From positions 236,282,001-236,346,000 of the forward strand of contig OZ024741.1 of assembly GCA_964016885.1 (NCBI GenBank): a stretch of DNA of 64,000 nt, given 5' to 3'. A program made the position numbers and the translations under genes. Below the pieces are notes generated by a model, which was given only the letters and a program-made list of their open reading frames with translations, had not been told where the DNA came from and did no database searches. This DNA is from Eledone cirrhosa. Taxonomy: Eukaryota. Numbering within the stretch: the stretch's first letter is position 1; each line of letters starts with the position of its first letter. Of this stretch, positions 5,290 to 57,277 are shown piece after piece.

Positions 5290-7110
5290 ATTTATTGTTA
5301 TATTTGGGGAGGGTCATATTTGCGTAATATTGCCAGAATTAATAACAGAACACACTCACTGTTTGGTTGGTTTTCGCTTCTCGCTGTCTTTTATATATAT
5401 ATATCTGCGATCTAACTTACTCGGTCCTCAGTGTTGCCATTGACTGACCGGCGGTCAAAAATAATACAGATACAATATAGACAAACACATATATATATAG
5501 TTTACATAAATCTTTCGTTGCACATCTGCAACATCGTCAGTGGTGTTATATTCATTGTTCCTCCTGTTGTGTTGTATGTCTACGCCATTTTTTTTTTTTT
5601 GTTCAGTCTGTCTATATATTTATTTGCTTGTTTGTTTATCTTATTTTATTTTGTCTTCTTTGCGCATGCGTTTGCGTGTGTGTATAGTGTTATGTGTGAT
5701 GTGTGATGTGTGACTAGTGTGTATAGTGTTGTCTGCTGGGTGACTAGTGTGTGTTTATGTGCTTGTGTATGTATTTATTTATCTTATTTTATTTAATTTA
5801 ATTTACTTATTTATTTATACTTCTCTTAGGTCAGTGTTGTTTGTTTGGGTGTTGTTGTTGTTCCACTCATTCTTTCTGTTTAGCTTTGGTCTTCTAATTT
5901 CTATTTCACTGGCCTCTCTGATTTGCCTATCTGCTGGGTCATTCCTATGTTTAGATATTATTCTAATTTCTATGTTGTCTATGTTACCGTCATGATGTTG
6001 TCTAGCATGTTCGTATAGTACTGACCCGTTTTTTCGTCCTTTTAGTTCCCCCCAGTGTTGGTCTATCCTTTCACCTATGCTACGAGCTGTCTCACCTATG
6101 TATGTTGTTGTCGTGTTTCTGCAAGTACCCTCTGTACATCTTATGCTATAGACTACGTTTCTAGTTTTACAGTTTATCCGGGGGTTCACCTTACATATGA
6201 TACATTTCCTATTGGTACAGTGGGTTTTCTTAAAAGGGTAGGTTTTGCTGATCAGGGATTTTATGGTGGTTCCTGGCTTTTCTACCACCTTTATTTTTAA
6301 GTGGGTCTTTCTCAGGGCCTTTCTACACTGGTTAGCTAATTTCCCTCCAGGGGTGGCGTCCACAAACATGACACTCTGATATCTCTGGTTGTCGTACCAT
6401 GATGTGGCCTTCCCTATCTTATGTCTAGCCCTATCTAAGCTATTCCATGATTTGCTCCTGTATAGTGGGCAAATTCCTTTCATGTCCAGTTCTATGAGGG
6501 TCTTATACTTTTCCATGGCTCCTTCGTATACTCTGACTCTGTCTCTTTGGTTGTAGCCAGAGAACTGCATGCGGTTGATGAAGTGTTGGATGTGTCCTTC
6601 CATTTCTGTTGGGTCGCACATGCTGGACACATTCTTCATCACTCGTACCAAATCTGCGATCAGAATATTAAACTTAGCATTACTGGACATTGCTGAGTTT
6701 TTGAGTATCAGGTATTTGGAGGCCATGGGTTTAGCATAGTGTGAGTGGAGAATTTGGGCTCTCTCGTCTATAGTGTTAATCCAGAGTTCTGTGTCTAATA
6801 CAGGTAGTCTATTGTTAGGGTGTTTGGAAGGGAAGTCTATAGTTACAGTTATACTCTGGTGTATGGAATTAGCTATCTGCTGGATGCTTTCCATCGTGCT
6901 ACGTTCTAAATCAAACTTGTTAGTGCTCTCTAGTGGGGGTGTTCTTATAACTATATTGATATCGTCTACATAACGAGAGTACATGATGAGGTCTATGGAG
7001 CTTTCATTAAGGAGATCTTTAAGTCTCCTTTCCCACCATACCATGAAAAGGTTGGCAACATCGCCAGCTATGCTGACGCCGATGGCTGCTCCCTCATTTT
7101 GGGTGTAGAT
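5290..7110 (-). mobile_element. 5'-truncated Penelope-like element, Naiad-like; RT C-terminal half plus GIY-YIG endonuclease (ORF 5815-7044, frame extends upstream to ~7110)
   Basis: YTQNEGAAIGVSIAGDVANLFMVWWE and SRYVDD RT motifs; LPVLD; Cys-rich linker HCTNRKCIIC...C; VVYSIRC...C...YIGETARSIGERIDQH GIY-YIG; E...LNRKNEW end. Confidence 0.9.
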
Positions 7111-7609
7111 ATATTTATATTTGGATGTATATATATTTATATTTGCTTACATGTGTGCGTGTGTAGTCTCTGGGTGGCTGCAAACTAGGCATCAAACATG
7201 CCATTAGATATGATGCATGTGTGTGTGTGTGTATGTCTGTGTGTGTGTGTTTATGTGTGTGTGTATGTCTGTGTGTGTGTTTATGTGTGTGTGTGTGTAT
7301 GTGCCTGTGTATATGAGTGTTTGTGTGTGTGTGTGTATGTGCGTGTGTATATGAGTGTTTGTGTGTTTGTGTGTGTGTGTCTCCTTTCTCAGTGCCCTGA
7401 CCTCAGACAGACAGCCACTGTTATTCAGTGCTACATTCAATATTCAGCACACACACACACACACACACACTATCTATCTATCTATCTATTTACACACACA
7501 TATACACACACACACACGCATATATTTATATATATATATATATATATCTATATCTAACCTACTTATCAAGCAAATTACCTATCTAACCTTCTATCTATCT
7601 ATCTATCTA

Positions 7610-15360: not shown

Positions 15361-16303
15361 GTATTATTGGAGATGTATGTAGTCTTCTCGAAATAAAATT
15401 GGTTTTTTTGTATCACGAAGATGTGTGCGTGCCCCCCCCCCCCCTCTATCTTTCACCCCCTCTCTTCTGAACGGTGAGATGGACGTATTTTTCGAAGCTA
15501 ATAATATGGAATTACATAACTGCTATCGATTAGTCAATATATCGATATTATCGTGATTCATTTCAACCTTTGAAACTATTGTAAGTAAAGCACTGAACCG
15601 CGTCTTTTTGTTTTCATTGTTCAACCTATAAATATGAAATTATACCTGTATTTTGTTTATAAGAACAATGGTTACAGATACAAATTAAAGTGTCCTATAC
15701 TTCAGAAAATAAAATCCAATATAATAAACATACATCTTGTACCTGTTGTACCTGTAGATTCCTCGCTTCCTGTTTCTGTTAGACGCGCTGGAGGTGTACT
15801 GAAAGAAAGAAAGACAGAAGGAAAGAAAGTTGAGAGAGAGAGAGATGCAAAGAAAGAAAGACTTTAAATTCCGTAGACTTTTTTCCTTTCTTCAAGCATA
15901 TGAATATCTGTTCATATATATATAACTCGGGTGGTGGGGGTGGGTTGGGGTTGGGGTTGGGGTTGATATAATCTATTTTCCCAATCTGACATATTGCAGA
16001 CCTTGTGTCTATATTGAAAATCATTATTAAAGGGTGGTAGATTGGCAAAATGTGTAGAGCGTCGGGTGAAATGCCTTTGCGGTGTTTGTTCTGGCTCTTT
16101 ACATTGTAGTTCAAATCTCACCGAGGTCAACTTTGCCTTTCATTCTTCAATCAATATAATCAACATTGCTCTGTCCCCCAAAATTTGCTGGCCCTGTGCC
16201 TAAATTAGAAATTAATATAAAGACTGGCTGTCTATTTTGACGGTGTGAGCTCACTAATTATGAATATCATATATACGCACACACGAGCACAAATACATAC
16301 ATA

Positions 16304-17305
16304 CACTGAGGCACATACATGCACTGAGGCTCACACATACATGCACTGAGGCTCACACACGCACATACATGCACTGAGGCACACACACGCACATATATGC
16401 ACAGAGGCACACACACGCACATATTTGAACAGAGGCACACACACACGCACATATATGCACAGAGGCGCACACACACACGCACATATCTGCACAGAGGCAC
16501 ACACACGCACATATCTGCACAGAGGCCCACACACACGCACATATTTGAACAGAGGCACACACACACGCACATATCTGCACAGAGGCACACACACACGCAC
16601 ATATATGCACAGAGGCCCACACACACGCACATATCTGCACAGAGGCCCACACACACGCACATATCTGCACAGAGGCACACACACACGCACATATATGCAC
16701 AGAGGCGCACACACACGCACATATCTGCACAGAGGCACACACACACGCACATATCTGCACAGAGGCCCACACACACACGCACATATATGCACAGAGGCGC
16801 ACACACACGCACATATCTGCACAGAGGCACACACACGCACATATCTATCTGCACAGAGGCACACACACACACGCACATATCTGCACAGAGGCCCACACAC
16901 ACGCACATATATGCACAGAGGCGCACACACACGCACATATCTGCACAGAGGCCCACACACACACGCACATATCTGCACAGAGGCCCACACACACACGCAC
17001 ATATATGCACAGAGGCGCACACACACGCACATATCTGCACAGAGGCACACACACGCACATATCTGCACAGAGGCACACACACACGCACATATCTGCACAG
17101 AGGCCCACACACACGCACATATCTGCACAGAGGCCCACACACACGCACATATCTGCACAGAGGCCCACACACACGCACATATCTGCACAGAAGCACACAC
17201 ACGCACATATCTATCTGCACAGAGGCCCACACACACACGCACATATCTGCACAGAGGCACACACACACGCACATATCTGCACAGAGGCCCACACACACGC
17301 ACATA
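16304..17305. repeat. ~30-bp minisatellite, about 33 copies
   Basis: Unit gcacagaggc(a/c/g)cacacacacgcacatat(c/a)t with variable (CA)n length; it explains the overlapping repetitive ORFs. Confidence 0.95.
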
Positions 17306-17809
17306 CGTAGTTAGGAGGGGGGAGAGTCAATAGGTTTCTTTGCCTTAATTTATTAACCTTTCCTTTTCTCCCAGTTGTTCACTTCGATTCAGGCAAATTG
17401 CACAAAGAAGAGAATAAAGGAGAAGGCAAAGCTCTATATATAGTCAGTGCAAACCACATTAGCGACAACAGTTTTGTGTTGAAAATTATCAATGCAGCTG
17501 TCAAAAAATTACCATTTATCGTCTTTTTTTCTTTCCAATTATTTAATAAATTATATACGTAAGAAATAATTTATATGTATGAATCTCTCTCTCATTCTCT
17601 CTCCACCCCCCTCTCTCTCTATATATATATATACACCCACACTTTATATATATATACACGCACACTCTTTATATATATATATATATACACGCACACACAA
17701 ACACACACTGACACGCACACATTCATGCATAATGTGCGCGCATTGCACACATTCACAACACACCCTCACGGATGCACACACCCTCACGGATGCACACACC
17801 CTCACGGAT

Positions 17810-19639: not shown

Positions 19640-20836
19640 TGTTGAATGGAAATCATGGTCAGGCGGTCCATCTGTTGTCAACACCCGCTACGTGGAGGGC
19701 TGGGCATGCCGTGGCTGATGATGCGCAGGCACGCGCTCAGGCTACGACATCTCCACCTCTTCCTCGACGGTGATCAGGTGTGGTCGCCGTTTGCTAGACG
19801 CGTTTTTCCCCAGCTCGTTTCCTTGACGGAGCTGCAGTCCTGGGTCAAGCGAAGACCGAGAGGGAGCGCCTGGAGACTGGAATGTCTTCAGGCGCTCACA
19901 GCCCTCGACAAATCGGGCAATGTGATCGGTGGAAACTCCACCTCGGCGTTCTATAGAGGATTAGTGGAGGGGAAGAGCGACGACGTACTTGGGGAAACTC
20001 TAGGCGTCGACGAAAATCAACTAGCCAATCTCTTCGGAAGAACTTTCGGGCCAGGGCCTATGGACAACTTCCAGAAATCTCTGGCCTGGCAGTGCTACCG
20101 AGGAGCCTTGCCAGTTCGGGATAAACTCTACAGGCATGGAGGTGCCGTCAGCCGGGCATGTCCAAGATGCGCGCAGGGCGACGAAACCGTCCTGCACGCA
20201 CTCGTCCAGTGTCCGAAAATTGCTGACTTGTGGGTTTATGTCGAACACCTGCTGTCGCGTTTAGGACGGATCCAGCTATCATCTGAGTCTATCGTGAGGA
20301 TTGCCCCGCCCTCCTCCTTTAGCCGGGAAGGACAGGCAGTTTTTATCTGTCTGGTGGCCATGGCGAAAGAGATAGTATGGTGGACACGTTTGAAAGGGCT
20401 GAAGACGAGCACTTACCTCTTCGGTGATGCTCTGATTGACTTTTTCAAATTTCATTTGAAAAGGAAAATCAGAGTAGAGAAGGAAGTGCTCTCTTCCCAG
20501 CATTTTGTTGAAAGATGGGTGAGAGAAGCAAGAATGGCCCGAGTGAATGGGCCGACTCTGAGTATATATCTGTAAACTAAAGGTGGAAAACTGGGAGAGG
20601 GCACTTGCCTTGGTGGTCAAGGTCATTGTGGCTTTTTACTGGGCTTTCTCCACAAATGTCCCTCCGAAGTCTCCCCCCTATTGGGGAATTTTTTCATTGT
20701 TATTTTCATTGTTATTTTTGTTACATCCTCTGTTTTTGTTTTTTTACACGCAGAAATGCCCATTTGTACCGTCCTGCATTGTCCTGCACTGTCCTTAATG
20801 TCTACTTTATGTAAACCCTTGTGGTTAATAAAGAAA

Positions 20837-21094: not shown

Positions 21095-22350
21095 GAGAGG
21101 GTCATGGCGGCAGAATCCTTAAACACTCCTTCTAACGGGTCGGGTCAGAAGCAACCGTTTCCAATTGACCCCGCTGGAACCCCGAGCAAGACCGCTCAAG
21201 GATATTATCCAACCATCTTGCTCGGGGTTAACTCCGGGGTCTCCTGTCGGTTAGTTTTCCCCGTAAAATCTGCCCAGCGATTCTTTCCTGAGACGTTCTA
21301 ACCACATGCCCAAATGCCCATCGCGATCGTATTCTTTCAGTCATTACCGAAGATTCATGGTCATAGGTAAGGGTTGATACGAATATCGAATTGAAGATAG
21401 CGAGTTTGGCTTTTACACCTACCTCCCTTCTTCTGATTACCAAATGCTGAAGCTGGCGCATTACTGTACCAGCTCCTGCAATTCTTGCACTTAATTTAGC
21501 TTCCTGCCTTCCATCACTCGTGAACACGGCCCCGCAATACTTGAACTTCTGCACCTGCTTCAGTGGAACTCCATTCACATATAGAGTGCACTGCGCAGGC
21601 TTCCTTGACGGGCGACTTTCTTAGTTTTCGCAGCACTGATTTTCATTCCAGCCATGAACCCTATGAAAACTCGGCATGAAACCTATCAAATCGGAGATCA
21701 CTTTCTGTCGAGTTAAGTAATACCATGTCGTCTGCAAATTCTAGCCGACTAATTTTACACCCGCCAGTCATGACACTACTTCCAACCCGTCTGCGCATGT
21801 CAATCCCGTTCATGAAAGTAATGAGCAGGAGAGGTCACAGTATGCACCCTTGGTGGAGTCCCACTCCCACATTTAATGGTTTCAATTTAGCACCATTTAT
21901 CCGAAGACAAATACTCAGGCATTCGTATAGCAACATCATGACAACAAGAAGCTGACTATCGATTCCATACTCCTGCAGAACCATCCATTGCAGCTTCCGA
22001 TGAACACTGCCATATGCTTTTTCGAAATCAACAAAACAAGAATATACCTCTTGGCAATACTCCCACAATTTCTCGAAGACCTCGTGTAGTGTGAATTCTT
22101 GGTCGGCTGTGCTGTGTCCGGGGTGAAAACCACACTGTTCATCAGCTAGCTTGAACGCGACAATCTCCCTACATCTCTTTGTCAGACACTTAGCATAGAC
22201 TTTACCAGGGAGGCTTAACAACGAGATTTCTCTGTAACTGGAATAATCTCTTTTATCTCCCTTTTTGAAAATTGGGATTATCAATCCCGATTACCATTGC
22301 TTAGGTGCCTTTCCAGAGATCCAGGCCACCTGGCACACAGGAGCTAGCCA
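21095..22350 (-). mobile_element. Degraded RTE LINE (RT and C-terminus)
   Basis: IIPIFKKGD..YREISLLSLPGKVY, EQCGF, CFVDFEKAY, VGLHQGCIL, QVQKFKYCG, WAFGHVVR. Confidence 0.88.
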
Positions 22351-41300: not shown

Positions 41301-42140
41301 TCTGAGCAGACTAGAACATAAAATAAAGTGTCTTGCTCAAGCACACTATGCGTAATTGAGAATCAAACAGACTACCTTACAATTGTGAATCAAACACCCT
41401 GACCACAATGTGTTGGTGGTATAAGTGACTTGACTATGTCTTCAGCAGTGGAGCTAGTGGTTTGATTTACCTGGTACTTATCACTTCCTTAACAGAACTT
41501 CCCTGTCTTCTTAATAATTACAATTGCAATCCCATTCAAACCATCTTTTTAATTTTTTTTTTTTTTTACTTTATATATTTTTTTACTTTATATATTTTTA
41601 ATTTATATATTTTCCCAGGAATTATTTCCTGAAACTGTATTTTTAATTCTCGTCTTTCTTCTTTAATTATTGCTGTGTGTATCCAGATTAGAATAGGTGC
41701 ATCATATCTCTGCATGTTATTAGGGGTGACTAAAAAGGTTGGAACTGGGAAGAGAATCCAGCTGTAAACATTGCCTTAAAACAGATCCCTTGATAAATAT
41801 GAAAACTGTCAACGGGCCCACATGACTAACCCTTACTTTAGCAGGATAAATGCCTTAAAACTGTTGTTGTATTTGTGTTCATTAATGAATGAGTGAATGG
41901 ATGAATATATTATCTTTTATTAATTTCCCATGGTGAATATCTTCTTTGGTTTAGAAATTTTACTGAAATTCTTTTTTTTTTAATCTTGAGACTGTATTTA
42001 TTTAATTCATTCATATATTTATTTATGTATTTATTTGCCTATTTTTCCTTGTTACGAATATCTTTTACCTGTTTTAGAATCTTTACTGAAACTGTTATTT
42101 CTACGTCTTCTTTCCAGCAGTGTATAGCAGTAGTTCTGCA

Positions 42141-45100
42141 ATGGAGAGGTACAGTGGTGAGAAATCCAGTCATTCTGATATGTCTGGGAAACAGTTTTCA
42201 CATCGACACATGCAGCAGGCTAGAATGTCTCATATGAACAAAAAGCACGGCAACAGTGAAATAGCAGCTGTGAAGCAGTTTGTTCCACACAGACATGCTT
42301 ACCAAACAGCATTATTTCCTGTTACCATGCCTATGCCGCACATGACCCTCATTCCAGCCCACACGGAAGCTCTGTCGGGTAAACACTTCTCCCACCTCCA
42401 ACAGCATCATCATCTTCATCAACAGCAGCAGCAGCAGGTGTCCATGGCATCAATTGTTGACAAATCCCCAACCCACAGTGATATCATTAGTAAACATTTC
42501 CCCACCTCACACAGCCACAATAGCTTGCAACAACAACAGCAGCCTCCTCTTCCTCCTCCACCTCCTTCATTAACACCAACCCAAGTGAGGATGTCACACA
42601 TTGCTGAAAAATCCCTGCATCACTCTGAAATATCTGGCAAACAATATTCTCATAGCCTGCAACTACAACAACAGCAGCAACAACAACAGCATTCTTTGTC
42701 ACATTTACCTGAAAAGAGTAGCCATTCCCAATTATCTGGCAAGCAATATTCACACTCTCATAGCATGCATCAACAACAACAACAGCAACAACAGCGGATG
42801 TCTCGTATAGCAGATAAGTCAAGCCACAGTGAGATGTCTGGTAAGCAATATTTACACTCCCAGAGCATGCATTCTCAAAGAATGTCTGACATCCTTGAGA
42901 AGTTGAACCCTGGCAGTGAGATTGCCAGTAAACAGTACGTCCATTCACCAGACATACCAACTCATCGGATGCCTCACGTCAGTGAAAAATCCAGCTCAGG
43001 ACACCGTGATGACCTGACCAACAAGTACTCCCAGTCACACACTGGCATCCAGTCGGATAGAATGTCACTGTTGTCCTCCTCGGACAAAACTGGACAAAGT
43101 GGAGGCAGCAATAGCAGCCCTACTGGCAAATCTCATTATAACCCTACACACATGCACACTTCAATGGTGTCCCCACCTCATCAGCAAATGTCACATCTCC
43201 CAGAGACTATGTTTCCCAACAACATCTACAGTAGCCAGTATTCACAACCCTGTTACCTGCCTGTCTCCACTCCTCCTACTGTGACTACTCCCACTTCAGC
43301 TTCTACACCTGATCGAATACTATCACCAAACACCACACCTATTATAAGCTCTAGTATAGCTTCCAAACAGCAGCCGCAACAAGTTTCTGTTGATAAAACC
43401 TATAGCAGTAGTAGTCATGAAAAGTCTCTCTCATACCAGAATGACATTAGTCAGAAGCAGTACAGTATCGGTAAGTCGTTACCCACATCAACTAATCAAC
43501 AACAACAACAACAGCAACAGCAACAGCAGCAACAACAACAACAACAGCAACAGCAGCAGCAGCAGCAGCAGCAACAACAACAGTATCAAGAGCGAAAGGA
43601 GAAAACGAAGGAGAAGCAGCTGTTTTGTGATTACTGTGGTAAGAAATTTCCTCAGGAAGATATGATGCAAGAGCACCGCCTCACTCATATGGGAGGAAAA
43701 GCTTTCCACTGTGACATTTGTTTTAAGCAATTTTCGCGCAGAGATACAATGCAAAGACACCGTAAGAGTCACATGGAGTCTAGCCACAGCATAGATTCTA
43801 CTGGATCCACCGAAAATGTCTCACTGAATAACTCTGACCACAGGTCGACAATGATGCCTCAGAGCATGACAACAATGCCTAGCTCAGTCTCTCCCAATCA
43901 GTCCACTCTGGCGGGTCCCGTCCCATATGATACCTCTCCATCAGTCCCTCCTATCACTACTATGAACTACATACCAACTATACCGAAAACACCAAAACCA
44001 AGAGCTCCAAGGATTTCAAAACCCGATGACAAGACGTACCAATGTGATATTTGTTTCAAACAGTTTGCTCAGCGTTACTACTTACAGATTCATCGGAGGA
44101 CACACACCGGTGAGAAACCATATCAGTGTGACTTTTGTATTCAGAAGTTTTCTCGCAGGGACACTTTACAGATTCACCGAAGAACTCACACCGGAGAGAA
44201 ACCCTACCAGTGTGAGATATGTCTTCGACTGTTTGCTCAAAGTGATAAGCTACGAGCCCACAAGAAGTCACACGTTTTGAAAAAAAAATACCAGTGTGAA
44301 TTTTGCCTGAAGCAGTTTGCTCAGAGGTATTACCTGCAGATCCATCGGAGAATTCACACAGGAGAGAAGCTACTACAGTGTGATGTCTGCTTTAAACCTT
44401 TTGCTCAGAAACATTACCTAGAAATCCACAAGCGAACTCACACAGGGGAAAAACCATTTCAATGTGATTTCTGTATTCAAAAATTTGCACGGAAGACCAC
44501 ACTACAGATCCATCGAAGAACACATACAGGAGAACGTCCATACCAATGTGATGTTTGTTCAAAAGATTTTGCTCAAAAATACAAACTTCAGATACACATG
44601 CGGACACACAGCCCTAAAAAGCGACACCAATGTGAAATCTGTCTCAAACAGTTTGCTCAGAGTCACTATTTGCACATTCACCGAAGAACACATACTGGAG
44701 AGAAACCATTTGAATGTGAAATTTGCAGTAAACGATTCTCACAGCGCAACTCACTGCAAGTGCATAGGCGGACGCACACAGGGGAGAAACCATATCAGTG
44801 CGACACTTGTTTCAAGCAGTTTGCTCAGAGACAGTATTTACAAATACATAAAAGAACACACACGGGCGAGAAACCATTTCAATGTGATTTTTGTATTCAA
44901 AAGTTTGCACGCAAAACCACACTGCAAATACACCGCAGGACTCACACAGGGGAAAAACCTTACCACTGTGACATTTGTCTCAAGAAATTTGCTCAGCGGT
45001 ACAAGCTTCAAATCCACAAACGCACACACATGCCTAAAAAACGTTACCACTGTGACGTATGTCTGAAGCCCTTTGCTCAGAATCACTACCTTCAAGTACA

Positions 45101-45485
45101 TCGTAGGACGCACACAGGCGAGAAACCATTTCAGTGTGATGTCTGTTTAAAGCAGTTTGCTCAAAGGAACTCTCTGCGACTGCATCATCGAACTCATACC
45201 GGGGAAAAGCCGTTTGAATGCGACATTTGTTTCAAGCAGTTTGCACAACGACATTACTTACAGTTGCATCGAAGGACTCACACCGGAGAGAAACCTTACA
45301 CTTGTGAGTTGTGTACGAAACAATTTGCTCGAAGGGATACACTGAAACGGCACAAGAAACTGCACAATTCTCAACATAGTGCAAACAAAAAGATGCACTT
45401 TGGTGAGCAAAAGTCAGCCACAAATTCTGGGAGTAAAACAATTGAAGAATTTCCACCTATGAGTGAATATTTGTGGCAGTTGTAG
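42141..45485 (+). CDS. C2H2 zinc-finger protein (~1114 aa; 2 + 16 fingers; Q/S/H-rich N-terminus; Q29 tract)
   Basis: Uninterrupted 3.3-kb ORF; CxxC-x12-HxxxH repeats with TGEKP linkers (44037-45365); polypyrimidine tract and ttccagcag acceptor at ~42100-42120 just before the ATG at 42141. Confidence 0.95.
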   Translation: [1114 protein letters not shown]

Positions 45486-52448: not shown

Positions 52449-54763
52449 TTTACGTCCACTTTTCCCTGCTTGCAAGGGTGGGACGGGTCTTATTCAGCAC
52501 AGCATCTCTCCACTCGTCACGGTCTCTCGTCATCTCCACCGTGAGCTTCAATGATCTGAGGTCTGTTCTCACCACCTCCGCCCATGTTTTTCGTGGTCTA
52601 CCTCTACCACGTCTTCCTTCAACTGGCAATTCCTGGCACTTCTTCACCCATCGGTCATCCTCCATGCGCATCACATGTCCATACCACCTCAGTCTCCTCT
52701 CCCGTACACTACATTCTATCCCTCTCAGACACAGTTTCTCTCTCAGCTCATTTATGCTGGGTCGTTCACGCACATTGACATTGCACATCCAACGGAGCAT
52801 GCTTGCCTCATTTCCCTCCAGCTGTCGCATATCCTCTGCAGTTGCTGCCCATGTCTCACTACCATGCAGCATCGCGCTCCTCACACAGGCATCATACAAC
52901 CGGCCTTTCGTACGCAGGGAGAAACCTTTCTTCGTCAGCAGAGGAAGCAGCTTCCTAAACTTCTTCCAACCCATCCTTATTCTAGATACTATGGCCTCGG
53001 AACACCCTCCTCCCATGCTAATCTGATCTCCTAGGTACCGGAAGCTATCCACCACTTCTAAAGCACCCTCCTGCATCTGAAAAATGTGTCTATCAATGCG
53101 ACTTCTACTGTCTAATTTCCCTGTACATCTACTGCATACATATTTCTCCCTACCTGCTAGTTTGCCTGCTATCCCGCTACATCTCTTGTGTACCCAGGAT
53201 CTGCATTGTGTGCATTTTATAGAATTTATGCCAGTTCCTTTTCTGCATATCGAACATGGCCATTTCCCTGACGGAATCAGGGTTTTGTCCTCTTTTCTAC
53301 TCATCAACACTTTTGTCTTAGCTAGGTTCACTCTCAGTCCTCTTGCTTCCAACTGCTGTTTCCATAGCCAGAATTTATTCTCTAGCTCCTCTACTGATTC
53401 TGCTATAAGAGCCAGATCGTCAGCATAGAGAAGTTCCCATGGACAGCCAGTCTTAAACTCCTCTGTTATGGCTTGGAGGACTATAATGAACAAGAGCGGG
53501 CTGAGGACCGAACCTTGATGTACTCCTACTTGTATCTGGAATTCTTCACTAAACTCCATTCCTACCCTGATTTTACTGAGAGTACCTTTGTACAAAGTTT
53601 GCACTGTCCTCACAAGCCTTTCCTCAACACCTAGCTTCCTTAGGGACCACCAGATGACAGATCAGCTTACCCTATCAAAGGCCTTCTCTAGGTCAACAAA
53701 GGCTAAGTATAGTGGCTTATTTTTCTCTAAGAACCTCTCTTGCAATTGTTTCACCAAGAAGAGGGCATCTGTTGTACTCTTCCCAGGCATAAAACTAAAC
53801 TGCATCTCATCTAGTTTGACCCTTTCTCTAATTAGTTGTGCTAATATCCTTTCTGCCACTTTCATAACCTGATCCATCAGTTTTATACCCCTATAATTGC
53901 TCCTCTCCAGAGCACCCCCTTTACCTTTGTAGCAATTTATGAGAATACTGCTGCACCAGTCTTTGGGTATGACACCACCATATATAGCCTGATTGATGAT
54001 GCGTGCAACCAGTTTAGTGCCTTCAGCATCTCAGCAACTATTCCCGATGGTCCAGCAGCCTTACCATTTTTCATTTCCCTAATCGCCTCTTTGACCCTAT
54101 ATTCGTCAATCTCAATAGCTGGTCCCTCTGTCGGATCTACTAAGGGTAATTTCCCTCTCTCCCATTCGTTCTCCACATTCATCAGTCTCTCATAATGACA
54201 TTTCCAGGCCTCCTTTTTCTGATCATTCGTGACACTAAGTACACCGGCATCATCCCGGACACATTTATCTCCAACAACATCCTGATTTGCATTGACACAC
54301 TGCCTTGCAATGTGGAACACCGCACGCCTCTGATCTTCCCATCGCAGAACATTGGCAAACCTCCTACTCTCTGCCTCCCTGCGTGCTAAGTACACCTGAC
54401 GTCTAGCTTCTCTCTTAGTGGCTGTATATTCTTCCCTACTCCCACCCTTTTTCCAAGCCTTCCATGCTAGTCTTTTGTCTCTAATAGCCTTATCTACTGT
54501 GCTGTTCCACCACCAGGTCACTCTCTGTCTGGTTGGAGCTCTGCTCCAGCCACAAGTTTCATCAGTAGCCTGCAGCAAGTTGTCACGTAAGAAATTCCAG
54601 TTATTATCTATGTCATACGTCTCTAAATCGACTTCTTTTTCGTCATATACATCTTGAAGGGCTTTCCTAAATTTGTATTTTAGTGAAAGGTCTTTTAGCT
54701 TCCAGACCTTTCTTCTCCACACCTTCCTGTATGTCTCATTCCATCTCTTGCTTATTGAGATAT
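52418..54763 (-). mobile_element. 5'-truncated RTE LINE (RT with PHD-like Cys cluster), frameshifted
   Basis: AFVDLEKAFDRV, GVHQGSVLSPLLF, YADD, CSIC..C..C..H..C, FRYLG; (ATG)n tail on the minus strand. Confidence 0.95.
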
Positions 54764-54771
54764 ATATATAT

Positions 54772-57277
54772 AAAGAGAAAGACTGCTTTTACGAGCAACT
54801 TTTACAAACAACCGCAATGACAGAGGACGGAGACATCGTTATGCTAGCAGGAGACTTCAATGGTCATGTTGGACAGCTCCAGGATGGTTTCACATGGTGG
54901 GCACAGTTACGGCTCAAGAAATGAAGAAGGAGTGAGACTTCTTGAATTTTGTGATGCAAGTACACTGACTATTTGCAACACTAACTTCCAGAAACCTGCC
55001 AACCACCTAATAACCTACAAATCTGGTGAGCACATAAACCAGATTGACTTCTTACTAGTTAGGCAGCGGGACAGGCAGATAGTGTCTAATACCAAGGCAT
55101 ACCCTGGGGAAGAATGTACCCCACAGCATAGGTTAGTCGTTAGTGATATCTCAGTAAGCAAGAGATGGAATAAGACATACAGGAAGGTGTGGAGAAGAAA
55201 AGTCTGGAAGCTAAAAGACCCTTCACTAAAATACAAATTTAGGAAAGCCCTTCAAGATGTATATGATGAAAAAGAAGACGATTTAGAGACGTATGATTTA
55301 GATAATAACTGAATTTCTTACATGACAACTTACTGCAGGCTACTGATGAAACTTGCGGCTGGAACAGAGCTCCAACCAGTCAGAGAGTGATCTGGTGGTG
55401 GAACAGCACAGTAGATAAGGCCATTAGAGACAAAAGACTAGCATGGATGGCTTGAAAAAAGGGTGGGAGTAGGGAAGGATATACAGCCACTAAGAGAGAA
55501 GCTAGACGTCAGGTGTACTTAGCACGCAGGGAGGCTGAGAGTAGGAGGTTAACCAATGTTCTGCGACGGGAAGATCAGATGCGTGTGGTGTTCCACATTG
55601 CAAGGCAGTGTGTCAATGCAAATCAGGATGTTGCTGGAGATAAATGTGTCCAGAATGATGCCGGTCTACTTAGTGTCACGAATGATCACTAAACTGGTTT
55701 CATGTATCATCAATCAGGCTATATATGGTGGTGTCATACCCAAAGACTGGTGCAGCAGTATTCTCAAATTGCTACAAAGGTAAAGGGGATGCTCTGGAGA
55801 GGAGCAATTATAGGGGTATAAAACTGATGGATCAGGTTATGAAAGTGGCAGAAAGGATATTAGCACAACTAATTAGAGAAAGGGTCAAACTAGATGAGAT
55901 GCAGTTTGTTTGTGCCTGGGAAGAGTACAACAGATGCCCTCTTCTTGGTGAGACAATTACAAGAGAGGTTCTTAGAGAAGAATAAGCCACTATACTTAGC
56001 CTTTGTTGACCTAGAGAAGGCCTTTGATAGGGTACCCCGATCTGTCATATGGTGGTCCCTAAGGAAACTAGGTGTTGAGGAATGGTTTGTGAGGACAGTG
56101 CAAACTTTGTACAGAGGTACTCTCAGTAAAGTCAGGGTAGGAATGGAGTTTAGTGAGGAATTCCAGATACAAGTAGGAGTACATCAAGGTTCGGTCCTTA
56201 GCCCGCTCTTGTTCATTATAGTCCTCCAAGCCATAACAGAGGTGTTTAAGACTGGCTGTCCAAGGGAACTTCTCTATGCTGACAATCTGGTTCTTATAGC
56301 AGAATCAGTAGAGGGGCTAGAGAATAAATTCTGGCTATGGAAACAGCAGTTGGAAGCAAGAAGACTGAGAGTGAACCTAGCTAAGACAAAAGTGTTGATG
56401 AGTAGAAAAGAGGACAAAACTCTGATTCTGCCAGGGAAATGGCCATGTTCGATATGCAGAAAAGGAACTGGTATAAATTCTATAAAATGCATACAATGCA
56501 GATCCTGGGTATACAAGAGATGTAGCGGGATAGTAAGCAAACTAACAGGTAGGGAGAAATACGTAAGCAGTAGATGTAGAGCAAAATTAGACAGTAGAAG
56601 TCGCATTGATAGACACATTTTTCAGGTGCAGGAGGGCGCAATAAAAGTAGTGGATAGCTTCCGGTACCTAGGAGATCAGATTAGCATGGGAGGGGGTGAG
56701 GGGGTGTTCCGAGGCCATAGTATCTAGAATAAGGACGGGTTGGAAGAAGTTTAGGGAGCTGCTTCCTCTGCTGACGAAGAAGGGTTTCTCCCTGCGTACG
56801 AAAGGCCGGTTATATGATGCCTGTGTGAGGAGCTCGATGCTGCATGGTAATGAGACTTGGGCAGCAACTGCAGAGGATATGCGACGGCTGGAGAGAAATG
56901 AGATAAGCATGCTCCATTGGATGTGCAATGTCAATGTGTGTGAACGCCCCAGCATGGATGTGTTGAGAGAGAAACTGTGTCTGAGAGGGATAGAATGTAG
57001 TGTGTGAGAGAGGCGACTGCGGTGGTATGGACATGTGATGCGCATGGAGGATGACCGATGGGTGAAGAAGTGCCAGGAAATGCCAGTTGAAGGAAGACGT
57101 GGTAGAGGTAGACCACGGAAAACATGGGCGGAGGTGGTGAGAACAGACCTCAGATCGCTGAAGCTCCCGATGGAGATGACGAAGGACCGTGTCAAGTGGA
57201 GAGATGCTGTGCTGAATAAGACCCATCCCACCCTTGCAAGCAGGGAAAAGCGGACATAAAATGATGATGATGATGAT
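54772..57277 (+). mobile_element. 5'-truncated RTE LINE (partial APE endonuclease plus RT), disrupted; inverted relative to 52418-54763
   Basis: AGDFNGHVG, QIDFLL and QHRLV APE motifs; RT motifs as in the neighbouring copy (YADN here); internal deletion near 55688; (ATG)n tail. Confidence 0.95.

Follow-up and report, generated by a model that had tools for sequence, protein, structure and literature searches.

Cephalopods contain hundreds to thousands of C2H2 zinc-finger genes, which are tied to the nervous system. Expansions of these genes have been reported by Holzinger et al. 2025 (PMC12513265) and Albertin et al. 2022 (PMC9068888), and also in PMC9795677, and the first two reports describe clustered multi-finger genes. 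The same arrangement is found for the gene family analyzed here. The analysis started from a gene, P0001, within a stretch of 64,000 nucleotides of the Eledone cirrhosa genome (GenBank assembly GCA_964016885.1, contig OZ024741.1, positions 236,282,001 to 236,346,000 of the forward strand), and this whole stretch is called the window. Eleven decayed, or fossil, fingers reside in the N-terminal ~450 residues of the encoded protein, and about 19 genes of one clade carry such units, mostly within a cluster of 3.7 Mb.

The closest described cases come from mammals. Degenerate fingers have been described in KRAB zinc-finger proteins, e.g., ZNF7 and ZNF443, and, as in the window gene, Cys and His ligands are missing next to intact arrays (PMC2865497, PMC2667407). 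However, in the parts of these reports that treat them, the mammalian degenerate fingers are single and non-functional, and they were only counted when two of the four ligands were left. In contrast, most octopod units have retained a single ligand at best, and they constitute an N-terminal block across the family that has derived residues of its own and outlasts the neighboring spacers. A second analogy concerns KRAB of tetrapods and FiNZ of cyprinid fish, because also in these cases a subfamily of tandem zinc-finger genes is recognizable by a conserved stretch at the N-terminus, which may recruit cofactors. FiNZ is an acidic stretch of 28 amino acids that has its own exon and no likeness to known domains (PMC10547256). 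The octopod block, in contrast, shares its exon with the array, is net basic, repeated, and finger-derived, and occurs in about 20 old genes, not in hundreds.

Natural loss of zinc ligands within a finger family is also known from Ml4 and Ml5 of Mesorhizobium loti, zinc-free homologues of Ros/MucR with a conserved extended hydrophobic core (PMC12948726). These proteins are bacterial and have retained the core, whereas both the core and the helix of the octopod units have decayed. Lastly, Naderi et al. 2024 (PMC11321997) described transcription factors whose disordered regions contain aromatic residues at periodic intervals. The N-terminal region of the window protein is likewise polar, of low complexity, and contains spaced aromatic residues. 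However, these are sparse (20 of 470 residues, about one per 30-35 residues across residues 120-333), and their spacing stems from the finger ancestry. As for the family studied here, its clade comprises about 21 genes whose synonymous sites are saturated, and it may correspond to one of the small clusters that PMC12513265 describes as cephalopod-wide. The main text of that report has no mention of degenerate fingers, N-termini, effectors, or domain architecture and, like the covered parts of PMC9068888 and PMC9795677, describes no N-terminal or effector domain. No account of a domain in this cephalopod family was found in the literature searched, which comprised article texts and abstracts; the Dryad data of PMC12513265 could list these genes. 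Degenerate fingers are thus already known, while a family-wide fossil-finger domain of cephalopods was not found in print.

The window gene has a single-exon coding sequence with one open frame of 1114 amino acids from the Met codon at 42141 to the stop codon at 45485. The whole protein matched PF00096 with an E value of 1.9e-60 and counts as a tandem C2H2 zinc-finger protein; its 18 intact fingers form a group of two (43620-43772) and a group of 16 (44037-45365). Within residues 1-450 Pfam detected no finger. A Pfam search up to E=10 with the window protein and the N-termini of 10 paralogues yielded no match to KRAB, FiNZ, ZAD, SCAN, or BTB, whereby the presence of FiNZ in Pfam was unchecked. 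An exact match to P0001 was absent from the protein collection. The features of the gene are as follows:

42141..45485, + strand: coding sequence of the C2H2 zinc-finger protein of 1114 amino acids, P0001 (open frame, Pfam)
42141..42200, + strand: fossil finger 1, Ser at the first and second Cys sites, exact register, top-scoring; the second site is Tyr in the four nearest paralogues (profile, alignment)
42222..42284, + strand: fossil finger 2, weak, with an insertion of one residue (profile scan)
42330..42392, + strand: fossil finger 3, weak, Glu at the first and Ser at the second Cys site; absent from the initial annotation (profile scan)
42441..42503, + strand: fossil finger 4, Ser at the first and Ile at the second Cys site (profile scan)
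42588..42941, + strand: fossil fingers 5-8, a Ser-rich run (42588-42650, 42690-42752, 42792-42854, 42879-42941; profile scan)
42972..43034, + strand: fossil finger 9, weak; in its second half the Cys sites are occupied by Asp and Thr (profile scan)
43185..43262, + strand: fossil finger 10, family-conserved, Asn at the first Cys site (at 43218), Tyr at the second, followed by Gln-x-Cys-Tyr (family alignment)
43404..43466, + strand: fossil finger 11, Asn at the first and Ser at the second Cys site, common to the paralogues L031, L032, and L033 (alignment)
43497..43583, + strand: poly-Gln tract of 29 residues (sequence)
43620..43772, + strand: two intact C2H2 fingers, the first of the form typical of the subfamily (finger scan)
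44037..45365, + strand: array of 16 intact C2H2 fingers, the predicted DNA-binding part (finger scan, Pfam)

All eight units listed in the initial annotation were found at the coordinates given there. Three further units had been overlooked (42330-42392, 42972-43034, and 43185-43262), of which only the linker half of fossil finger 9 had already been noted. Neither of the two Cys is kept in any of the eleven units, and none of them has the full C2H2 ligand set, C-x2-C-x12-H-x3-H. The description of the units as fingers with Cys mostly replaced by Ser could not be maintained: both sites are Ser in just four of the eight listed units (first site six, second site five) and in four of all eleven. 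Also the proposed distance of 27-34 residues between neighboring units applied to only four of the seven gaps, and the distances between all eleven units are 28, 36, 37, 49, 34, 34, 29, and 31 residues, followed by about 70 and 75. Units 5-8 are most similar to one another and to units of the nearest paralogues, and poly-Gln comes after units 5 and 6. Ser makes up 18.5% of the fossil region, accompanied by 16% Gln and 9% His. In units 1, 6, and 7, the Pro and aromatic positions ahead of the first Cys site have also become Ser, and therefore the drift to Ser was not specific for Cys. The N-terminal 470 residues are net basic (37 Lys and Arg versus 26 Asp and Glu) and thus differ from the acidic composition of the KRAB/FiNZ type.

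The descent of the units was analyzed with a profile of 179 fingers from unrelated arrays, in which the Cys columns were masked and the composition of the region itself was used as background. With the window N-terminus, the eight best matches summed up to 31.4 bits, whereas the shuffle means ranged from -79 to -102 bits and, under each of three null models, 0 of 300 shuffles reached the observed value. Additional masking of the His columns led to the same outcome. The masked profile ranked the initially annotated units at the top. When the columns of the profile were permuted and the real sequence with its repeat structure was kept, the observed sum was reached in 0 of 500 cases. In addition, Ser residues were replaced by Cys at the 18 S-x-x-S sites, a check that had been proposed in the initial annotation. 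The four best sites yielded 24.4, 22.5, 18.4, and 13.9 bits, compared with 8.1 bits for the top site when 200 shuffles were treated in the same way; the 18 intact fingers scored 16-41 bits.

Further evidence came from the paralogues. The unmodified N-terminus of L078 had 39 matches in the PDB, 38 of which were zinc-finger proteins (best E=0.006). A profile of ten paralogue N-termini that contained no intact finger, A4, matched Zfp568 at 6e-17, and the 60 best of its 115 matches were all zinc-finger proteins. The window N-terminus scored 40 bits with A4, and its best stretch scored 22 bits, compared with at most 11 bits in 600 shuffles. Other searches were negative: the first 300 residues of the window protein alone matched no finger in the PDB, Pfam found no finger in the ten paralogue N-termini, and the ESM Atlas gave no usable match for the window N-terminus. 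For L078, the best Atlas matches were C2H2 clusters at 0.96, a weak result as the recognition of 1570 was below the threshold of the tool. On the basis of these comparisons, we regard the descent of the fossil units from C2H2 fingers as settled. An array of fossil fingers in the N-terminal half, as proposed in the initial annotation, was confirmed, and its likeness to fingers and their TGEKP-type linkers holds outside of the ligand columns.

The paralogues were identified by searches of the 3.0 Gb genome of the species itself, and their numbers are lower bounds. They are located in the 3.7-Mb cluster (contig C2, 234.0-237.7 Mb), at 340.4 Mb of the same contig, and on two small contigs. In a tree of 25 finger arrays, 21 formed one clade with a support of 99/99. 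Sixteen genes were tested against 100 shuffles each. With the family profile, the best N-terminal unit exceeded 98 or more shuffles in 15 of them, and with the unrelated profile it exceeded all 100 in 12. As judged by eye, units were clear in L092, L094, and L097 and weak in L101. The paralogues represent a graded series: the second Cys is kept in some units of L071, L079, L081, and L083, the first Cys is kept in L086, and both His are kept in one unit each of L075 and L078, two genes that also have a near 28-residue spacing and have retained some His. The number and the spacing of the units differ widely between genes. The most widely shared unit is that at 43185-43262, fossil finger 10.

The family extends to other octopods. 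The finger array of a neighboring paralogue shows 98% identity with proteins of three Octopus species and 96% identity with a protein of Argonauta. These four species account for all named orthologues; P0005 and P0006, orthologues of L085, are farther away (array 84-85% identical to L085). A protein search with A4 found six proteins, and P0007 was dropped as its likeness, by eye, involved intact fingers only.

Several further observations were made in the family. L031, L032, and L033 (contig C2, 234.16, 236.21, and 234.73 Mb) have in common a block of 128 codons in the fossil region with just 0-6 synonymous differences, despite the saturation of synonymous sites, and L031 and L033 have also the 3' end in common. 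The block looks like the result of recent gene conversion over 0.6-2 Mb, with an assembly error as the alternative. The N-terminal spacer of L082 contains about 300 residues of tandem repeat with a unit of 14 residues. The orthologues of Octopus and Argonauta lack it, indicating a recent expansion of a coding repeat. In P0005 and P0006, additional Ser-rich decayed units follow the conserved block, as in the window gene, possibly by parallel expansion. L072, L073, and L080, members of another zinc-finger subfamily in which single fingers lie far apart, are interleaved in the same cluster. L096 (contig C5, 69.01 Mb), a truncated copy, corresponds to the 5' part of L075 and lies next to an open frame that, by eye, resembles the reverse transcriptase of a long interspersed element.

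The fate of the zinc ligands was quantified in a census of 56 units, at a threshold at which 8.5 units were expected from local shuffles. Of 35 units in the distant paralogues, 16 have Tyr at the second Cys site and four still have Cys. Ser dominates at this site only in a subclade of four genes (support 95/85) that comprises the window gene (five of eight units) and L031-L033 (9 of 13 units); the sister gene L076 has Tyr. In the alignment of unit 1, L079 has Cys at the second site, L076, L031, L032, and L033 have Tyr, and the window gene alone has Ser. TAT to TCT is a single step from Tyr to Ser, and this site most simply changed from Cys via Tyr to Ser. The initial annotation had argued that Ser codons of both classes point to repeated replacement of Cys by Ser. 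Indeed, AGY and TCN codons both occur at the first site; however, the next most frequent residues there, Asn and Gly, are one step from AGY. At the second site, in contrast, the ten Ser units among the 38 best-scoring distinct units have nine TCT codons and one TCA codon, and the single AGT of the window gene at this site is found in the divergent last unit. Therefore, the codon argument was rejected, and repeated independent changes from Cys to Ser found no support. One second site, which is Ala in the window gene, is Gly in two related organisms. In summary, the feature is larger and older than had been seen initially, and Ser was the wrong residue to single out.

Of 38 fossil units, 21 and 19 carry a hydrophobic residue at two linker-side positions, respectively, compared with only 4 and 14 of 180 intact fingers. 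Such shared derived residues point to a descent of units from already decayed units. The second Cys was likely lost several times independently across the family, because some units still keep it. The change from Cys to Tyr is a transition, whereas that from Cys to Ser is a transversion, and the prevalence of Tyr may partly reflect mutation bias. We infer the following order of events: the founder of the subfamily would already have had about three outer fingers without the first Cys and the first His. Thereafter, the second Cys would have been lost repeatedly, mostly to Tyr. In the four-gene subclade, units would then have been duplicated within the gene and have drifted to Ser, His, and Gln, and poly-Gln would have replaced the recognition helix.

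Comparison of the fossil region of the window gene with that of organism B, a related species, revealed 19 synonymous and 11 non-synonymous changes among the 30 listed coding differences. The resulting omega, i.e., the ratio of non-synonymous to synonymous change, was 0.16-0.21, or at most 0.41 if ten unlisted differences were all non-synonymous. The listed coding insertions and deletions comprised 3, 3, and 1+5 bases, and the frame was kept. These data support purifying selection on the fossil region, rather than neutral decay. Conservation of S-x-x-S, which had been suggested initially as a test against neutral decay, turned out not to be the pattern of the family, but the region as such is retained under selection.

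For the unit at 43185-43262, which was anchored by eye and compared in 10 of the 16 genes, the proportion of synonymous differences (pS) was 0.80 and thus saturated, whereas the proportion of non-synonymous differences (pN) was 0.37. The first intact finger had a pN of 0.32, and the spacer that follows the unit one of 0.72. The retained residues are chiefly aromatic residues, Gln, and the derived Cys-Tyr pair, whereas Lys is kept in only four of ten genes. Codons were identical in just 117 of 261 pairs with the same residue. As most same-residue codons differ and synonymous sites are saturated, gene conversion does not explain the conservation of this unit. Between species, the identity of L082 with Argonauta is 86% in the fossil block, 62% in the spacer, and 96% in the array, and that of L085 with P0005 is 64%, 25%, and 84%, respectively.

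We consider it on balance probable that the N-terminal decayed fingers, which are shared by the family and conserved across octopods, act as a disordered regulatory region, the aromatic-rich remnants of which contact cofactors or other copies. Homology, family spread, and selection follow from the comparisons above, while disorder and any binding role go beyond them. The 18 intact fingers would bind DNA. The fossil region would not fold as a finger because the ligands are absent and the core Leu is mostly lost, and it would not read bases, as the helix is gone. Instead, it would act as an arm that is flexible and multivalent: the unit at 43185-43262 would provide a short motif for binding, and the Ser-rich units would be either weaker repeats or spacer.

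Several results weigh against this proposal. Within the window gene, the unit cores had six non-synonymous and eight synonymous changes and the remaining sequence had 5 and 11 (pN 0.012 for both, Fisher p=0.71), a comparison of low power. Motif-specific selection is thus seen for the paralogues and the conserved unit, and not for the Ser-rich units, and the conserved unit itself was placed by eye in a subset of the genes. In the family units, the core Leu is kept in 29%, Lys in 68%, an aromatic residue at the core Phe site in 76%, and the second His in 42%, but these values are inflated because the same columns served to identify the units. With both profiles, L087 did not pass the shuffle test, and L074, although inside the clade, has no detectable unit. 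A protein orthologue of the window gene's own N-terminus was found neither among proteins of near length nor among shorter proteins nor among 1.84 billion representatives; the sole match among the latter, P0002, is a Pro-rich tandem repeat and was rejected as compositional. AlphaFold predictions gave a predicted local distance difference test (pLDDT) of 45.7 and a predicted template modeling score (pTM) of 0.13 for residues 1-386 of the window protein with an alignment of four rows, and 55.8 and 0.12 for the N-terminus of L078 with ten rows, and with such shallow alignments low confidence is weak evidence of disorder.

The most serious alternative is that the region is a tolerated relic, a passive spacer in which selection acts only to maintain an open frame and a polar, disordered composition, while the pattern is left over from ancestry and partly refreshed by gene conversion. 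The equal constraint of unit cores and remaining sequence in the window gene fits well with this view, as do the apparent gene conversion among L031, L032, and L033 and the high variability of unit number and spacing. In addition, an unrelated octopod family likewise has decaying outer fingers; four of its five tested N-termini exceeded at least 298 of 300 shuffles. However, a pN of 0.37 in the conserved unit at saturated pS, together with the low number of identical codons, is not explained by gene conversion, and in two paralogues the fossil blocks outlast the adjacent spacers between species. We therefore judge it unlikely, albeit worth serious consideration.

Residual binding of ligands appears improbable. 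In that case, His-rich units would loosely hold zinc or another metal, or Lys residues would grip the backbone of DNA or RNA non-specifically and aid the search of the array. The His content, the net positive charge, the second His in many units, and the recurrence of a derived Cys in the conserved unit would be in line with it. However, the most shared unit has retained its aromatic residues rather than Lys, and a full ligand set is found in no unit of the window.

About as improbable, and if anything slightly more so, is a folded zinc-free repeat, the module of the initial annotation. Each unit would then form a finger-like hairpin with Ser or Tyr in the former zinc site, as in zinc-free Ros/MucR homologues. 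The hairpin and linker positions are retained (Lys and the aromatic residue at the core Phe site), L075 and L078 have kept nearly the finger spacing and some His, and zinc-free Ml4 and Ml5 provide a precedent (PMC12948726). However, the helix half and the core Leu have largely decayed, and poly-Gln and poly-Pro are found in their place in the window gene. The two AlphaFold runs yielded no support for a folded module, which, given their shallow alignments, is weak evidence. Furthermore, the large hydrophobic core of the Ros homologues has no counterpart in a finger of 28 residues. Lastly, that a low-complexity stretch rich in Ser, His, and Lys merely resembles the finger consensus by chance is extremely improbable and was already ruled out by the column-permuted profile and the matches of A4 to real fingers, since, despite the negative Pfam, PDB, and Atlas searches, every null was exceeded and graded intermediates exist among the paralogues.

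A second conserved element of the family is found at the C-terminus:

45444..45482, + strand: conserved C-terminal motif, acidic at first and followed by Pro-hydrophobic-x-x-(Tyr/Ile/Leu)-Leu-Trp (family and cross-species comparison)

Of 16 family genes tested, 14 have this motif, which ends with Leu-Trp (Leu-Cys in L084). It was observed at the ends of L031-L033, L071, L075, L076, L078, L082-L087, L092, L094, and L101. Across species, the last 16 residues are 94% and 75-81% identical, compared with 62-77% and 27-32% for the adjacent tail. The motif, which may resemble activator helices of the form hydrophobic-x-x-hydrophobic-hydrophobic, is a candidate for a cofactor-binding helix. It also weakens the case for the fossil region, because it is at least as conserved as the fossil block, qualifies equally well as a candidate effector, and might suffice by itself for this role.

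The suggestion of the initial annotation that the region may be an effector domain in a group lacking KRAB is a live idea. In a more far-reaching version, the fossil block would be a finger-derived, zinc-free effector domain that binds cofactors, i.e., an analogue of KRAB that arose by recycling of a DNA-binding repeat. It would be older than the split of Argonauta and Octopus, perhaps coleoid-wide, multiplied into a tunable array in some genes, and paired with the C-terminal motif. We propose this only tentatively and regard it as possible rather than probable. A further candidate was noted in a large unrelated zinc-finger expansion: L009, L015, L018, L019, and L020 (contigs C27, C5, and C6) share a conserved N-terminal stretch of about 48 residues with one decayed finger, which exceeded 300, 298, 300, 289, and 300 of 300 shuffles, respectively. 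This stretch is acidic, has a FiNZ-like position, and is also a candidate effector.

The 5' end of the window gene was deduced from assembled sequence runs:

42116..42117, + strand: probable splice acceptor, AG behind a pyrimidine tract, so that the exon would begin at 42118 (contig of run X2)

The X2 contig matches the window from 42116 on and has 368 letters of other sequence upstream of it. The region 41879-42115 is covered in run X5 and has no coverage in run X2. Because the contig starts at this site and skips upstream DNA that is present in X5, an acceptor at 42116 was deduced, and the contig is probably a spliced transcript, although X2 is not recorded as RNA. The frame stays open between the acceptor and the Met codon at 42141, and the orthologues of L082 annotated in four species start at the equivalent Met.

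The remainder of the window contains several other elements. Fragments of retrotransposons with Pfam matches to zf-RVT or RVT_1 are present at 19646-20575, 21835-22290, 52450-53661, and 55894-56727, and those at 52-57 kb have opposite orientations. An open frame on the minus strand (5815-7146) encodes 443 amino acids without a Pfam match and possibly resembles a Penelope-type retroelement. A degenerate CA-rich tandem repeat of about 1 kb at 16267-17333 is open in several frames and is not a gene.

In our reading, these results address the question of how cephalopod C2H2 proteins activate or repress in the absence of KRAB. Standard annotation overlooks the region because Pfam scores nothing there. 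If the region were inert, the finding would be only a tidy example of finger decay. One genome offers a graded series that leads from a folded metal-binding repeat to a selected low-complexity region, and one old subfamily offers two testable candidates, the finger-derived N-terminal block and the short C-terminal motif.

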